Of a stretch of DNA of 64,000 bases, positions 26,855 through 32,982 are shown in pieces. The position numbers and the translations under genes were made by a program. The DNA is from a virus. Lineage: Duplodnaviria > Caudoviricetes. The stretch spans positions 1-64,000 of IMG/VR virus record IMGVR_UViG_3300010998_000002; one strand, 5' to 3'. The notes below the pieces were generated by a model. It was not told the origin of the DNA and made no database searches. It saw only the letters and a list, made by a program, of their open reading frames with translations. The stretch's first letter is position 1, and each line of letters starts with the position of its first letter.

Positions 26855-27172
26855 TTATAATGAACACATGCCATTTGAACAATTAGCACAAATTGGATTT
26901 ACAGGTGTTTTCGCTTCGGCATCTTCAATTTCTAAAAATTCTTTAAATTCACTCATTGTATGATTTATGCCATGTAATGCAGTAAATTTATTTTCGTCAA
27001 TGATTTTTAACAATACCGGAGTTGATATAATCCCATACTCCTCAATCAATGCGCTACAATCTTCTTCGTCAATATTTTTGTGTTCAACTTCTACACCTAA
27101 CTTGTCCAAAATTGCATCTAATTTCTTACATGGCATACAGCCATTCTTTTCAAATTTAATAATTCTAACCAT
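26855..27172 (-). CDS. thioredoxin/NrdH-like redoxin
   Basis: CMPC active site, STP cis-Pro; Cys-rich tail CANCSNGMCSL. Confidence 0.85.
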   Translation of the reverse strand: MVRIIKFEKNGCMPCKKLDAILDKLGVEVEHKNIDEEDCSALIEEYGIISTPVLLKIIDENKFTALHGINHTMSEFKEFLEIEDAEAKTPVNPICANCSNGMCSL

Positions 27173-27746
27173 TCTTACTCTCCATATATAGCCTTTTTTG
27201 TTCTAATAAATTCGGATATTTTTTATATAATCTATCAGCATTTTCTTTTAATATTTGATATGCACTCTGCCAATTACTATTTTCAACTTTAGCAAAAACG
27301 CAATTATGGTGCATATTTATATTACCATGTATAACTCTAAATATAGCCTGCCGAACAAAACCTAATTGTCGTGCAAAATCGGCAAGATTATCAAAATTAT
27401 ACATCTGATTTGTTATTAAATTATATCCACAGTATTCTTCTTTGTTACGAATATTTACCGCTTGTTGCTTATATGTCGCCCAACGGCAATTATCTTTATA
27501 ATAGTGGTCGTTTACATCTATTCTATCCAACGTGGTTTGTTTGACCCCAAATTGCTCACAATGAGAAAGATAAGATGGGTACATGTCAGACTTAAAGTTC
27601 TCGTAACACATCCATTTTAAGTCATATTGAATACCACGACCACCATAAAGATAAAATTTATGGCAATTAGGATTAGAGCATCTTTGCTTCATATCCGCCC
27701 AAATCTTATAAAATCTATAATCTTCTCTATTTTTACTAATCGCCAT
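27165..27746 (-). CDS. HNH-type homing endonuclease
   Basis: YKIWADMKQRC.NP, YGGRGI, TLDRID, NCRWAT..QQA.N. Confidence 0.85.
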   Translation of the reverse strand: MAISKNREDYRFYKIWADMKQRCSNPNCHKFYLYGGRGIQYDLKWMCYENFKSDMYPSYLSHCEQFGVKQTTLDRIDVNDHYYKDNCRWATYKQQAVNIRNKEEYCGYNLITNQMYNFDNLADFARQLGFVRQAIFRVIHGNINMHHNCVFAKVENSNWQSAYQILKENADRLYKKYPNLLEQKRLYMESKNG

Positions 27747-27759
27747 TATTATTCCTTTC

Positions 27760-28224
27760 TTACTTATTACCTGTTGAACCAAAACCACCAGCACCACGTT
27801 CTGTATCTTCTAATTCACTTACTTCTACATATCTTAATGTAGGATAAGGAATTACTATTACTTGTGCAATTCTTTCGCCATCTTCAATTTCTACAGGCGT
27901 ATCTTTCATATTTCTAAAGAATAAAAAGCATTCTCCACGATAATCGCTATCTAAAACACCTACGGTATTTTGTAACATTAATCCTTTTTTAGTTCCTGTT
28001 GAACTTCTAGGCACAATTAACATTACATGATTTTCCGGTAATTGAAATGCCAAGCCTGTACCAATTTTTACAGTTCCAAACGCCGGCACTTTCAATTTCG
28101 TGATTTTTTCTCCTGTTTCTTCATCGTATAAACAGGCTCTAATATCACTACCGGCAGAACCTACAGTTGCCATTGCAGGCACTACAGCATCTTCTCTTAA
28201 CTTTTTAACATAAATTTTACTCAT
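27760..28224 (-). CDS. dut: trimeric dUTPase
   Basis: AGSD, PRSS, GVLDSDYRGE, RIAQ, RGAGGFGSTG motifs. Confidence 0.97.
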   Translation of the reverse strand: MSKIYVKKLREDAVVPAMATVGSAGSDIRACLYDEETGEKITKLKVPAFGTVKIGTGLAFQLPENHVMLIVPRSSTGTKKGLMLQNTVGVLDSDYRGECFLFFRNMKDTPVEIEDGERIAQVIVIPYPTLRYVEVSELEDTERGAGGFGSTGNK

Positions 28225-28283
28225 TTATTTTTAACCTCTTTTGTATGATTTAATTATACTAAATTTTTTTATTTAAGTCAAGA

Positions 28284-29060
28284 CTAAACATTTACTAATT
28301 CTGGATGTTCTTGATAATAAATATCTTCTATATCAATTATTGACATATCTTGTAATTTATTTTCAGCATTCAATGTTTTAAGCAAATTGAACACCCTAAC
28401 TTCATCTTCCGAAGAAAAAATCTTTTTAACATTATTACCCTGTTGTAGTTTTTCTTTAACGGCTCTCATTTGTTTCCAAAATTTATAAAATCTAGTTTTG
28501 TATTTAACCATAAAGCCATTAGCATCTTCAAATACCCAACCTTCATATTGAATATCATAAGAAGAATCTTGTGATTTTTTAAAGGCATATAATTCTTCCC
28601 AACAATTGAATGTATATGCAACTTGTTTTACTTCTAAACCAAGATAATCTGCTACTTTAACGACTTCATTATAATTACTTTTCTTAAATTCAAATTCATT
28701 TTCCACAATATCTAATAAAAATAAATGATTTTTTTGATATTTAATAATATGCGGGTCATTATTTATATCAACACATTCACAAACCAATGTGCAATTATTT
28801 TCTTTGCAATATTGTTTAATGGTATTTCTTCTAATTTTTGGCATTGATTCTAATTGCTGTTTAATATAACCTACAAAATCACCATCATTAGTTGATTTTG
28901 AGCATATCAAAAGTTCATCGGTATTCCAATTATATGAAATTAAAGCCAAAAATCCATTTTCTTTTTTGTATGCAGTAACCGGAAATACTAATATCTTTTT
29001 TAATTGTTCTGACTTCCAACTTTCTGATTTATCTGGTATTAATAATTCTTTATTTATCAT
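28284..29060 (-). CDS. RNA ligase (Rnl1-like), C-terminal catalytic half
   Basis: motif I KENG, SKS, E..D.H.I.Y, EGWV, KYK..FYK; own SD GGAG 8 nt before ATG at 29060. Confidence 0.85.
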   Translation of the reverse strand: MINKELLIPDKSESWKSEQLKKILVFPVTAYKKENGFLALISYNWNTDELLICSKSTNDGDFVGYIKQQLESMPKIRRNTIKQYCKENNCTLVCECVDINNDPHIIKYQKNHLFLLDIVENEFEFKKSNYNEVVKVADYLGLEVKQVAYTFNCWEELYAFKKSQDSSYDIQYEGWVFEDANGFMVKYKTRFYKFWKQMRAVKEKLQQGNNVKKIFSSEDEVRVFNLLKTLNAENKLQDMSIIDIEDIYYQEHPELVNV

Positions 29061-29970
29061 ATTGCTTTCTCCATTTTTCTCTATTATAATAAACATATTG
29101 AAAATTTATATTATGCTCTTTTGCATATTGCATACAATTTAAGTTTGGATTTTCCTCAAAGGCTTTAAACAATTCTTCTTGTATAAAATTATACTTCATT
29201 TTTGGTGAAATGTCAAACATTACTTTTTTATATTCAATATATTTATTGTATTTATATGACTTATAAACCGAGATATTTTTATATAAAAAATCACAGAATC
29301 TTAATGCTTTAATCCCATTAAACCTAATATCTATAACATTATTTTTTTTACAAAATTTAGCATTTTGAAATATAGATATTTTTTCTAATTGCTTTTGCAT
29401 ATTAAATGAACATACAAAACTAATAGACAACATATTTTTATAAACGCCAATACAACCATCACCATCAATATATCCGATAAAAAAATACTTTAATTTATTT
29501 AAGTCATTTAAAATATATTCAGGTATGTGAAAATTATAAGTTTTTCTAGGTTTTATATTATTTTCTATTAATTTTTGCCAAATTTTTTGACTTCTAAAAC
29601 TTAATGAATAAACTTGTTTACCAACTTTAGGATTAGTAATATAAATAGGATAATTTGTATCTAATATTTTTTTTATATATTCAATTAATTTTAATCCATT
29701 ATCCCCAGATTGAGAAATAGAGATTGTGTGATTAAGTTCATTTAAACATCCATCAGAAGCCATTAAACCCAAAAAGTAATATTTTATATTACTATCAATA
29801 TCTAAAAAATTATCATTTAATTTATATTGTCGTTTAAAATTTTTACCACGTTGTTTAGTAGTTAATGCACTAGATTTATGACTACATACATCAGAACAGC
29901 ACATCCGAATCTTTGACGTTGTAGTAAAAGTTTTACCGCAATATTTACATTTTTTTACAAACTCTCTCAT
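29050..29970 (-). mobile_element. double-motif LAGLIDADG homing endonuclease with N-terminal zinc finger
   Basis: YFLGLMASDGC and FFIGYIDGDGC; CKYCG...CCSDVC; sits between the two RNA ligase halves. Confidence 0.9.
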
Positions 29971-30026
29971 TTTTATCTCCTATAATATTCATTATAATTA
30001 AGTATATTTATGTATCTCCTATAAAT

Positions 30027-30055
30027 ATTATAGTTATTTTTTTATAAACTGTAAA
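30027..30055 (-). promoter_or_regulatory. promoter inside the endonuclease insertion
   Basis: TTTACA-17-TATAAT immediately after the stop of 30060-31589. Confidence 0.6.
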
Positions 30056-30059
30056 CTTT

Positions 30060-31589
30060 TCAACCCCATGTAAAAAATTTTGGGTATGAACGTGCAATTA
30101 CTTTTTCAGTTTTTGCATCAACAAACAGACCTCTTGCCTTACAAGTTAAATTATTCCAATCTCTACGATAAAATACATCTCGTTTAAAATTATAACTTAC
30201 AATACCATCTTTAAGAATTTTCTTTTGAACTAATTTTGATTCATTAAGTTCTTTTAATAATTCATTGTCGGTTTTTGTTTCAAGTTTATCAACTTTTTCT
30301 TGAACTTTAAAACAATCTTTATTAAATACCGGATTAGGCATTTCCCATACGGCACTACCATCTTCGCCATAAACTTCTAAAATTCTTAATGGTGCGCCAA
30401 ATTCAACATTAGAACATAAATTAAAAGTTCTTTCGCCTGCATTGGCTTTAACATCAAAAATATTTCTATGACCATGAATAAGAATTACATCATCAGTATT
30501 TTTTCTCCAAGCATCATAAATCAAATCAATATCTTCATATTTTCCAACACCCTTAATCATTTCATCTGTTGAAGTAAAAATTGTAGGAATTGTAGGCAAA
30601 CCACCATGACAAGCAAAATATTTTTTGCCCTTAAAATTGATATAAGCCATTTGCCCAAATTTACGGCATAATTGTCGCAAATCTTTTTTATCAAATCCTT
30701 CAATTTGTGGAATTGTATTTTTTACAAATTCACCACTTCTAATTTTATTCTTATTGATTTCATAAATTAATTCTTTACCACCATATTTTTTAAGAATTTT
30801 AGCATGGTCGGAATCTAAAGAAGTTTCAGCGCCAATTTCTTCTGCATACATTCTTAACCATTGCTCATGATTACCTTCAAGTAATAAAACATTCTTTTTG
30901 TCTTTAATAGATAACAAAAACTCTATCACTTCTTTATTTTGAATACCCCTATCAAGATAATCGCCTAAAAAGATATATGCTGTTTTTTCATCAAAAGGTC
31001 TTGCTTCAAAATAAGATTTAATTGGCTCATAACAACCATGAATATCGCCAAAGAAAACAACTTTATCATATTCGCTATAATCATAAATTAAATCTTCATA
31101 TAATTTTGCAATGGCATCTGCCGGTTTTAAAATATTAAATTTCTTACTGACTTCCGTATCTTGTTCAAATACAGCCGACATTTTTCTAATAGTTTCTTCC
31201 GGTACTCTTTTATATTCATCTCTTGCGTTATTTCTTGCTAATAAAACGTCTAACGGCACATCTGTAAAATCTACTACAAATGCACGATAACGATATTTTG
31301 AAATTAATTGTTTATATCTGTTAAGTAATTCAGATTTATAATGAGTTGCATCAATAATAACAAATTCACCCCTAGCCATTCTTTCTTCTAGGATATTAAA
31401 CAATAACTTCCAAACCTTACCATCATTTTGTTGCGTAATAACAAAATTACCTTCTTTATTCAAAATAGGTGATTGATACATTACCCTAATTTTATCCGCC
31501 GAAAGTGCATATTGCTCTAAATGATTATTTTCAATCCATGTTGATTTTCCGCTTGCCGGCGCACCACGCAAAATATAAATAGTTCGCAT
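30060..31589 (-). CDS. polynucleotide kinase + metallophosphoesterase + N-terminal part of RNA ligase
   Basis: GAPASGKST, GDIHG, GDYLDRG, GNHE, HGG, HGH; ends KARGLF...ARSYPKFFTWG just before ligase motif I. Confidence 0.9.
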   Translation of the reverse strand: MRTIYILRGAPASGKSTWIENNHLEQYALSADKIRVMYQSPILNKEGNFVITQQNDGKVWKLLFNILEERMARGEFVIIDATHYKSELLNRYKQLISKYRYRAFVVDFTDVPLDVLLARNNARDEYKRVPEETIRKMSAVFEQDTEVSKKFNILKPADAIAKLYEDLIYDYSEYDKVVFFGDIHGCYEPIKSYFEARPFDEKTAYIFLGDYLDRGIQNKEVIEFLLSIKDKKNVLLLEGNHEQWLRMYAEEIGAETSLDSDHAKILKKYGGKELIYEINKNKIRSGEFVKNTIPQIEGFDKKDLRQLCRKFGQMAYINFKGKKYFACHGGLPTIPTIFTSTDEMIKGVGKYEDIDLIYDAWRKNTDDVILIHGHRNIFDVKANAGERTFNLCSNVEFGAPLRILEVYGEDGSAVWEMPNPVFNKDCFKVQEKVDKLETKTDNELLKELNESKLVQKKILKDGIVSYNFKRDVFYRRDWNNLTCKARGLFVDAKTEKVIARSYPKFFTWG

Positions 31590-31590
31590 T

Positions 31591-32265
31591 TTACTCTCCT
31601 TTATATATTAAACCTAATCCATTTTCCTTTAATTCAATTAACGGCATAAATTCTTCTACAAGTTTTTCATTCTTTGTAAATAACAATAAAGATGTTTCAA
31701 GCAAATCTCTAAATTTTTCTGCTCCAAAATTCTTTTTTGCTATTATATGATAACCATTTACCGTTTCTAATGTAGTTAAATAGCCATCTCCACAAAAGTT
31801 TTTTATACCCTCTTTAATCTGTTCGTGTTTTTTATCTAGGTCTATTAACCAAGTACGACAACCCTCACAATCTTTCATTTTATCGGTACTTTCTTTTTTA
31901 CTTGTTTCAGAAGCCACGATTTTATTGAGTTTATGGACAGAAAATTCACAACCATAAATAATTTCCCCAATAACCTTATTTAAAGTTTGAGAAGTATTAA
32001 CGAAAGTTTTAATAGTTGATTTTCTATCCAATGTAAAATATAATCTCGCACCTGTTAAATCGCAAAATTTTATCATTATAGGTTTTAGTTTTTGATAAGA
32101 TTCCAAACTATCAATTAACCAATATTTTAAACTTGTAGAATTTGGATTTGTAGCCAATTCATTACTACCATCTTTTGACCGGATAATTGCTTCAAATTTA
32201 TAATAACTTCCGTTTTTAAATTCTAAAAGTTTTTGTTCTATTTGTGTAAAATTATTAATCATCAA
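31591..32265 (-). CDS. conserved phage protein, possible AEP/prim-pol-like fold
   Basis: RSKD, ARLY, WLIDLD, T.NGYHII motifs (DxD plus GxH). Confidence 0.55.
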   Translation of the reverse strand: MMINNFTQIEQKLLEFKNGSYYKFEAIIRSKDGSNELATNPNSTSLKYWLIDSLESYQKLKPIMIKFCDLTGARLYFTLDRKSTIKTFVNTSQTLNKVIGEIIYGCEFSVHKLNKIVASETSKKESTDKMKDCEGCRTWLIDLDKKHEQIKEGIKNFCGDGYLTTLETVNGYHIIAKKNFGAEKFRDLLETSLLLFTKNEKLVEEFMPLIELKENGLGLIYKGE

Positions 32266-32317
32266 TGCCCTCTTTCCTATATTATAGTATCATATTTTAC
32301 TACATATTGTCAAGAGT

Positions 32318-32353
32318 AAAGGAAAAGGCGTGCCGATTACCCGATGACACGCC
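32318..32353 (-). terminator. terminator closing the radical SAM operon
   Basis: GGCGTG...CACGCC stem followed by T-tract on minus strand. Confidence 0.65.
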
Positions 32354-32391
32354 CAAATAATAAATAGGAAATTCCAAGTCTTACAACAATA

Positions 32392-32982
32392 TTAAAAACA
32401 TACACCATCAAATTTTTCTTGAAGTTCTTTATATTTTTGCCATTCAGCATCCTGCTCATATTCTTTCAATTTTGCACATACCGGACAAAAAGATTCTGGC
32501 ACTCCTGTATCATAAATATATTCAGATATAATATCGCCATATTCATCATCAAAATCTTCATCAGACATATCTTTATAATCAATATCCAAATCTTCAATAT
32601 TTTCATTATCGGTTATTAATTTGCGCTGATAATATTCTATTTGTTCTTGAAGATAATTAGGATTTTTTTCTACATCTTTTTGATACCAGGTCGGAATCTT
32701 TTTTGTACCATTTATCATATTTTGTAAATCTAGTATATCTTGTTCGGTTTCTTCTTTTTCAGATACAAAATGCTTTCTCAAATATTGATATTGTTCTTCT
32801 TTTGTAGCGCTTTGCCTAAAATCTCTTTCTGCGTGTGCTAAATGAAATTGATGCCCATGCTCGCATTGCTCCATCTCAAAATCGGACAAACTACAATCAA
32901 AGCCACTTTCAATTTGACCGCAAATGTTACATAAAAAACTACTACTTGATGAATTGCTTACAAAGCCATTTCGGATTTTCAT
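32392..32982 (-). CDS. NSSSSS-leader protein 6 (zinc-binding)
   Basis: MKIRNGFVSNSSSSSF; CNIC, CEHGH, CPVC. Confidence 0.85.
   Translation of the reverse strand: MKIRNGFVSNSSSSSFLCNICGQIESGFDCSLSDFEMEQCEHGHQFHLAHAERDFRQSATKEEQYQYLRKHFVSEKEETEQDILDLQNMINGTKKIPTWYQKDVEKNPNYLQEQIEYYQRKLITDNENIEDLDIDYKDMSDEDFDDEYGDIISEYIYDTGVPESFCPVCAKLKEYEQDAEWQKYKELQEKFDGVCF

Follow-up and report, generated by a model that had tools for sequence, protein, structure and literature searches.

In a gut phage, an RNA ligase gene is split by the gene of a homing endonuclease, inserted within the region encoding the active site; the locus belongs to the virus record IMGVR_UViG_3300010998_000002 (IMG/VR; Duplodnaviria, Caudoviricetes). 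The window analysed here is the stretch of 64,000 nucleotides (nt) at positions 1 to 64,000 of this complete 108.6-kb virus record with direct terminal repeats, and the split locus lies on its minus strand. Three open reading frames (ORFs) follow one another there, namely 31589..30060 (509 amino acids, aa), 29970..29050 (306 aa) and 29096/29060..28284 (270 or 258 aa); the two outer ones, hereafter the N-half and the C-half, are both covered by the family phrog_8238 'RNA ligase' (2.9e-141 for the N-half), and a LAGLIDADG gene stands between them. The reading considered probable is that a homing cassette would have created a two-piece ligase with a composite active site, much as in the nrdA/mobE arrangement of Aeromonas phage Aeh1. 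A first-pass annotation, made from the letters of the DNA alone, had suggested that the two halves reassemble into an active composite ligase, and the comparison with related loci lends support to this proposal, since catalytic residues are kept on both halves and the split outlasts the endonuclease in other lineages. The features concerned are as follows:

30060..31589, minus strand: N-half gene, 509 aa, with Pfam and PHROG matches, ending in SYPKFFTWG and a cassette-borne TGA at 30060-30062
29971..30059, minus strand: AT-rich cassette spacer, 89 nt, with a promoter and the duplicated TTATAGGAGATA
29050..29970, minus strand: free-standing, double-motif LAGLIDADG gene, 306 aa, with PF14528, phrog_4645 and PDB 2dch matches
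29188..29216, minus strand: promoter-like TTGACA-17-TATAAT, perfect at 12/12 positions, within the 3' part of the endonuclease ORF and 156 nt upstream of the C-half ATG
28284..29060, minus strand: C-half gene, 258 aa from the ATG at 29060, matching PF09511 positions 33-227 (7.6e-24)
28992..30075, minus strand: whole tract apparently converted with respect to the intact allele, i.e., cassette and short co-converted flanks, where the intact allele has five codons (ELDFV)

The layout drawn by the first-pass annotation was recovered in all its parts. As described there, the upstream ORF stops at SYPKFFTWG just before nucleotidyltransferase motif I, KENG and the rest of the ligase stand in a separate downstream ORF with a GGAG Shine-Dalgarno sequence and an ATG at 29060, an intact LAGLIDADG ORF has a stop overlapping this new start, and the spacer, given as 90 bp and measured at 89 nt, holds both a TTTACA-17-TATAAT promoter (30055..30027, 11/12 positions matching) and the duplicated TTATAGGAGATA. 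The C-half is taken by gene callers to begin at 29096 (270 aa), but the start conserved across the cassettes and provided with a Shine-Dalgarno sequence is 29060, which overlaps the 3' end of the endonuclease gene by 11 nt; the GGAG lies at 29072..29069, 8 nt before the ATG, and is encoded by C-terminal codons of the endonuclease (..KWRK..). From this start, the C-half comprises (i) a tail of aa 1-15 (29060..29016) ending in an invariant Trp, (ii) the nucleotidyltransferase core, with motif I KENG at residues 33-36 (28964..28953) and motifs III, IV and V, and (iii) a C-terminal helical module. The split allele is not an assembly oddity, since the cluster of its C-half has 18 members, found on 4 contigs. 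As for TTATAGGAGATA, exactly 2 copies occur in the 64 kb, both in the spacer (30024..30013 and 29985..29974), against 0.03 expected by chance. This 12-nt element contains a Shine-Dalgarno motif, and its second copy is the Shine-Dalgarno site of the endonuclease gene; the first, just past the -10 box and without a start codon at working distance, is partly retained in two related loci (L108, L109) and may represent either a conserved leader at the 5' end or the remnant of an earlier junction.

The insertion site and the intact allele

Thousands of relatives were retrieved with the N-half as query; almost all are uninterrupted proteins of 730-770 aa. The best one (P0001) is an uninterrupted protein of 757 aa with 99% protein identity, and it is this allele that fixes the insertion site, by the very alignment to uninterrupted homologs that the first-pass annotation had suggested. 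At the DNA level, the intact allele (L001) shares 97.1% identity with the window along the left flank (1527 nt) and 97.5% along the right flank (729 nt), and shows the five codons ELDFV where the window has about 1.05 kb. The mismatches gather at the junctions, with 4 within the last 13 nt of the left flank and, on the right, 7 of 18 within the first 21 nt against 11 in the other 708 nt, which looks like a short co-conversion tract. Since a further relative (P0002, 96% identical) is intact with the same junction as P0001, the split state of the window is the derived one.

Among about 100 intact homologs, the distance from KFF to the motif I Lys is constant at 25 residues. In a structure model of the intact allele, with a predicted local distance difference test (pLDDT) score of 90.5, the site is a coil with a short turn, preceded by the strand ending in KFFN and followed by the helix that precedes the motif I strand. 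The insertion falls within the short stretch linking the Rnl1-type N-terminal sub-domain to motif I. Two properties expected of a gene in pieces are found here, i.e., a precise insertion site given by uninterrupted homologs and a downstream piece with what appear to be translation signals of its own.

Active-site residues and the fate of the two halves

The N-half matches a P-loop kinase (AAA_33, 1.4e-18), a calcineurin-like phosphoesterase (Metallophos, 2.7e-18) and, at aa 484-507, positions 1-26 of the ligase family PF09511. In the model of the intact allele, the ligase part finds the fungal ligase Trl1-LIG (6n0t/6n67) at E ~1e-16 with a template modelling (TM) score of 0.65 and T4 Rnl1 at 1e-11, the kinase finds Clostridium thermocellum Pnk (4gp7, TM 0.74) and the phosphatase finds lambda phosphatase. 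In agreement with an Rnl1/Trl1-type ligase, motifs I (KxNG), III, IV and V are all present, and all of them are in the C-half. The N-half retains the beginning of the ligase, namely ARGLF (Arg486) and KFF (Lys504, Phe505). The equivalents of these Arg, Lys and Phe residues in Rnl1 and Trl1 make contact with ATP, and in T4 Rnl1 both Arg54 and Lys75 are essential (PMC6379707); aligning the intact allele to the Trl1 structure supports the equivalence.

Both sets of residues are conserved after the split. All 18 stand-alone C-halves, down to 37% identity, keep W15, KENGFL (motif I), E95 (III), E173-G174 (IV) and K186/K188 (V), and every split N-half has ARGLF, R500, Y502 and KFF unchanged. The split thus divides the active-site residues between the two pieces, and keeping those of the N-half would make no sense unless the halves still cooperated. 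The complete 108.6-kb genome contains no other RNA ligase of the PF09511 or PF09414 type, and so no back-up of these types. The ratio of non-synonymous to synonymous substitution rates (dN/dS) of the two halves in split alleles is low (0.1-0.25, closest pair), yet it was excluded as evidence of selection, most of the divergence having probably accrued while the genes were intact.

Besides these residues, every split C-half starts with 10-25 residues fitting [IV]PxNGxxW, where the Trp is invariant and followed by [KST][ST]. The codons of this tail vary at synonymous positions, which indicates conservation at the protein level, and the motif (IPxNGxxW) is found in none of the roughly 100 intact homologs, so that the tail belongs to the cassette. 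By analogy with the mobE-derived tails of Aeh1 NrdA, it probably helps the docking of the halves.

The insertion could instead be a knock-out, in which the N-half would still heal RNA ends, the C-half would be an inert remnant, and the gene would be bound either to decay or to be repaired by recombination. Such an outcome is rather unlikely. It would agree with the very recent date of the insertion in the window, where intact ORFs are expected with or without selection, with the separation of the ATP-contacting residues from motif I, and with the low confidence of the tail when the C-half is modelled alone. Against it stand the 18 C-halves keeping every catalytic motif, the ligase sub-domain residues retained by split N-halves, the Shine-Dalgarno sequence, ATG and conserved tail brought for the C-half in every lineage, and the genome without a back-up ligase. 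Moreover, a sister pair of split alleles lacking the endonuclease (P0056/P0079 with P0132/P0131) has kept its genes intact while the proteins diverged by about 23%, to 78% identity for the N-half, 77% for its ligase sub-domain and 76% for the C-half; this equal rate in all parts indicates no relaxed constraint on the ligase parts.

Probable spread of the cassette and loss of the endonuclease

The two-piece reading gains further ground from related loci, for which the 120 best N-half matches, the contigs of split N-halves and those of three stand-alone C-halves were compared. Eight of the 120 stop at the same place, KFFxW(G), and the architecture is shared, with an N-half stop, a spacer of 70-172 nt, a LAGLIDADG gene of 305-316 aa belonging to one family, and a C-half ATG overlapping the endonuclease stop. 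A near-consensus promoter lies 2-5 nt after the N-half stop in L108, L109, L002, L010 and L007, and further downstream in L110; the series GGAG, 8 nt, ATG ahead of the C-half is conserved in five cassettes. Orthologs of the endonuclease (dN/dS 0.19-0.32) occupy the same site in L002, L004, L008, L108, L109 and L110, i.e., one family with 44-65% identity recurs at one and the same codon, the halves of its hosts being 41-86% identical. Overall, this site is occupied in at least 8 lineages, and even homologs with only about 40% identity carry the cassette at this codon.

The split state changes at least 7 times on a tree of 118 N-parts and 14 times on a tree of 137 C-parts, where at least 12 changes are forced by well-supported branches; gains and losses are mostly at the tips, beside intact kin, and seven split C-half alleles are only 0.004-0.13 substitutions per site from an intact one. 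Two C-halves (P0122 and P0124) have their first 41 residues identical and are 80% identical overall, which fits a shared cassette and co-converted flank in different host alleles. Taken together, the cassette would have invaded at least a dozen related phage lineages. In IMG/VR, the split is a minority state, since the 80 loci kept from a scan with the C-half profile are all intact. The gene of L003 (P0030) was not counted as a split without endonuclease; it is otherwise intact, with one in-frame TAG four codons after KFFNLG (L003:5500-5650), which is either a nonsense mutation or a sign of a TAG-recoding phage.

As judged from its motifs and family profile, the middle gene is a LAGLIDADG homing endonuclease. 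It has two LAGLIDADG-type motifs, ..LMASDG.. and ..YIDGDG.., each with an acidic residue, and matches PF14528 (LAGLIDADG_3) at 23.9 bits for a cut-off of 22.5, phrog_4645 'endonuclease' at 6.7e-25 and, by profile, PDB 2dch, a putative homing endonuclease, at 8e-4. Its N-terminus bears a zinc-ribbon-like segment (CxxC...CC...C). A scan of IMG/VR with the endonuclease profile returned no close relatives besides the window's own record; the matches are 24-39% identical, mostly over the zinc-ribbon segment. In Staphylococcus phages, relatives carry annotations that place them within recA or name them DOD homing endonucleases, and one copy from a crAss-like phage is labelled 'mobile intron protein'. 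The perfect promoter-like site inside the ORF (29216..29188) has hexamers and spacing identical to those in L108 and L004, although the endonucleases are 49-64% identical, and is a candidate for a dedicated C-half promoter.

Further genes and inserts were noted around these loci. In L008 (2121-3912) and L009 (1766-3557), the split N-half is immediately preceded by a resolvase gene and an OrfB_IS605/TnpB-like gene. The downstream MT-A70-type methyltransferase gene of a related phage carries an intein (L109:6944-7756; Intein_splicing and LAGLIDADG_3 matches). An 814-aa N-half close to P0098, namely P0108, has an in-frame intein-like insert right after the GNHE motif of the phosphoesterase domain, which makes it a second kind of mobile element in the same gene family, also at an active-site motif. 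In the window itself, an ORF of 210 aa at 27165-27797 (minus strand) lies between a dUTPase gene and a glutaredoxin-like gene; its I-HmuI NUMOD-like match is weak (E 0.005), and it may be another free-standing nuclease-related gene.

Three lineages, i.e., L005/L006, L010 with P0079, and L007, have the split and the tail without the endonuclease. The gap between their halves is only 20-55 nt or holds a small unrelated ORF, and each C-half has its own Shine-Dalgarno sequence and ATG. Two ORFs were considered as endonuclease remnants and neither is recognisable as one: the 107-aa ORF that separates the halves in L007 gives an hhalign probability of 0.1, and the 288-aa ORF following the C-half in L010 has no PHROG match and does not align with the endonucleases. 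The first-pass annotation had held that homologs split at the same point without the endonuclease would refute its account. Such homologs do exist, as these three lineages show; they are nevertheless read as cassettes minus their endonuclease, because they retain the hallmarks of the cassette, with the IPxNGxxW tail and a promoter that follows the stop directly.

These same lineages are what an opposite order of events would predict, where the two-gene form, with its tail and own start, came first and the LAGLIDADG gene settled later in the gap, dragging the junction along by co-conversion. Free-standing phage endonucleases typically sit between genes, which would also fit. This history is nonetheless unlikely, since endonuclease-bearing alleles are the more numerous and the more widely scattered, and the cassette-type promoter kept right after the stop in endonuclease-less forms fits loss. 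Besides, whichever came first, the present unit would be mobile and split intact alleles, so that this alternative alters the history and not the mechanism.

It is very improbable that the pieces are rejoined into a single 750-aa polypeptide, whether through splicing of a degenerate group I or protein-dependent intron, through a split intein or through bypassing by ribosomes, for all that endonuclease relatives are annotated within recA, as DOD homing endonucleases or as a 'mobile intron protein', and that T4 gene 39/60, with its mobA cassette and 50-nt bypass element, is said to offer a precedent for a mobile element bypassed by ribosomes. An intron was rejected, as Rfam gave no match at E<=10 over 27500-32500 with permissive filters and none to a group I or II intron core at E<=1 in L004, L007, L010, L108, L109 and L110; outside the endonuclease ORF, the insert amounts to only 89 nt and about 35 nt, which is too short for a ribozyme core. 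An intein or split intein was ruled out by frame, intervening stops and piece lengths: the endonuclease is in a frame different from that of the N-half with several stops between, no intein blocks at the termini and no intein Pfam match were found, the N-half ends at KFFTWG, with 1-2 residues past the conserved Trp, and the tail has 15 aa here and only 10-25 aa overall. Read-through and bypass were likewise rejected, since the gaps are out of frame with stops, including those of 20-55 nt in endonuclease-less alleles, and the C-half has its own Shine-Dalgarno sequence and ATG; in addition, no junction point would restore the fixed 25-residue spacing of intact proteins. The first-pass annotation's view of a free-standing endonuclease without intron or intein is thus upheld, there being no Rfam match and the gene lying out of frame behind stops. 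The only matches of the six-locus scan, both elsewhere than the split, were a transfer RNA (tRNA) at L007:2265-2336 and a transfer-messenger RNA (tmRNA)-like match of 80 nt at L010:205-284. With 55 bits for the tmRNA model (RF00023), this stretch exceeds the gathering score of the family, and it is probably a tRNA-like element.

Several points weigh against a functional two-piece ligase brought about by homing. Modelled alone, the C-half has a well-defined core (pLDDT 90.6) and a poorly defined tail (pLDDT 51-79). The insertion in the window is so recent (99% to the intact allele) that its own ORFs are mute on selection, and the functional argument therefore rests on other lineages. The internal promoter is kept in only 3 of the 5 full cassettes (not in L109 and L110), and promoter-like sites are no more numerous in the region than in shuffled sequence (35 vs 31.7). 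Binding of the halves, as well as adenylylation and ligation by their complex, is a prediction from sequence, the cleavage specificity of the endonuclease for the intact allele is putative, and either the split or the endonuclease may have come first.

Within the homing account, the mechanism could run as follows. The target of the cassette would be the only RNA-ligase gene of the phage, a Pnkp-like kinase-phosphoesterase-ligase fusion. The cassette would supply (i) a stop for the upstream piece, (ii) a sigma-70-type promoter right behind it, (iii) the endonuclease gene, (iv) an embedded GGAG, and (v) an overlapping ATG, and would add some 10-25 new N-terminal residues to the downstream piece, ending in the conserved Pro...Gly..Trp. 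During co-infection, as the phylogeny suggests, the endonuclease would cut intact alleles at the conserved KFFNWGE codons, and repair would copy in the cassette together with a few dozen bases on either side of it. The N-half (509 aa) and the C-half (258 aa) would be translated separately and, to judge from their conservation, associate non-covalently. The C-half would supply the adenylylated Lys and motifs III-V to a composite active site, such that neither piece should ligate alone. Once the gene is split, the endonuclease could be lost while the two-gene ligase persists.

Related systems and significance

The kind of arrangement is known already from Aeh1 nrdA/mobE, the fractured genes and the T4 gene 60 cassette. 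In Aeh1, where the order is nrdA-a, mobE, nrdA-b, the tails created by the mobE insertion are essential for the activity of the split NrdA, and it was proposed from this single case that tails derived from an insertion "may represent a general mechanism" by which the breaking up of genes by mobile elements is neutralised (Crona et al., 2011; PMC3045599). The comparison with Aeh1 drawn by the first-pass annotation proves apt (PMC3045599). In both cases, a free-standing endonuclease without intron or intein splits an enzyme gene in its catalytic part, yielding separate polypeptides with new terminal tails. The present case differs by a LAGLIDADG endonuclease and an RNA ligase in place of an HNH endonuclease and a ribonucleotide reductase, and assembly and activity are here predicted from conservation; furthermore, whereas Aeh1 was described as a single case, cassette and tail would here be present in a dozen or more lineages and survive endonuclease loss. 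In the so-called fractured genes, a free-standing endonuclease is flanked by split-intein halves (Dassa et al., 2009; PMC2677866). A phage enzyme gene is there also broken in two with an endonuclease gene in between, and gene-control elements arrive with the endonuclease; in the absence of split-intein halves, the present pieces cannot be rejoined by protein trans-splicing. As with T4 gene 39/60, a mobile endonuclease cassette stands in an enzyme gene together with sequence features keeping the gene usable, but no sign of bypassing is seen here and the downstream piece lies in a different frame with its own Shine-Dalgarno sequence and ATG.

Respective to RNA repair, the order kinase, binuclear metallophosphoesterase, ligase is that of bacterial Pnkp (Pnkp/Hen1; PMC3675462), whose ligase is of the Rnl4 type, whereas the ligase domain here is nearest to the fungal Trl1-LIG (Rnl6) and T4 Rnl1 types. 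A search for Hen1_L gave no match in the phage, but none in the control genomes either. In the Pnkp1-Rnl-Hen1 complex, healing and sealing modules can work as separate proteins (PMC4411300); there, the division is between domains, while here it falls inside the adenylyltransferase. With the T4 Pnkp and Rnl1 pathway, the enzyme shares an Rnl1-type ligase with the same Arg, Lys and Phe in the N-terminal sub-domain (PMC6379707), but its healing domains are fused to the ligase and its phosphatase is a metallophosphoesterase, not a DxDxT acylphosphatase. By analogy with T4, its role is likely the healing and sealing of RNAs cut by host anticodon nucleases. Next to the N-half, a 224-aa gene of the family phrog_14949 (31591-32265 of the window, minus strand) ends 1 nt before the N-half ATG; its Atlas matches are only viral hypothetical proteins, it also precedes the gene in L001, L108, L109 and L007, and it may be a partner of the RNA-repair enzyme.

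No published description of this split ligase was found in the literature. What appears new is the host enzyme, with a site inside the adenylyltransferase, the free-standing LAGLIDADG gene, the many independent insertions, the portable conserved tail and the stable endonuclease-less descendants. The phage Pnkp-like RNA-repair gene is also marked as a hot spot for mobile elements, given the intein-like insert at the GNHE motif. For enzyme engineers, an Rnl1/Trl1-type ligase that occurs naturally in two pieces may be of interest. The locus would provide the idea of Crona et al. with a second enzyme family and many independent natural replicates, with matched intact and split alleles 99% identical and with lineages retaining the split after endonuclease loss. 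The assay of ligase adenylylation makes testable (i) tail-mediated assembly, (ii) a composite RNA-ligase active site, and (iii) the life cycle of a gene-splitting homing element. A further proposal, tentative and falling a little short of probable, is that the IPxNGxxW tail is a portable assembly peptide travelling with the endonuclease and that, together with the stop, promoter(s), Shine-Dalgarno sequence and ATG, it makes invasion of an active-site region phenotypically neutral. If this is true, a portable tail would constitute, beside introns and inteins, a third route by which homing elements neutralise their own damage, here caught spreading repeatedly and leaving behind stable two-subunit ligases after endonuclease loss.

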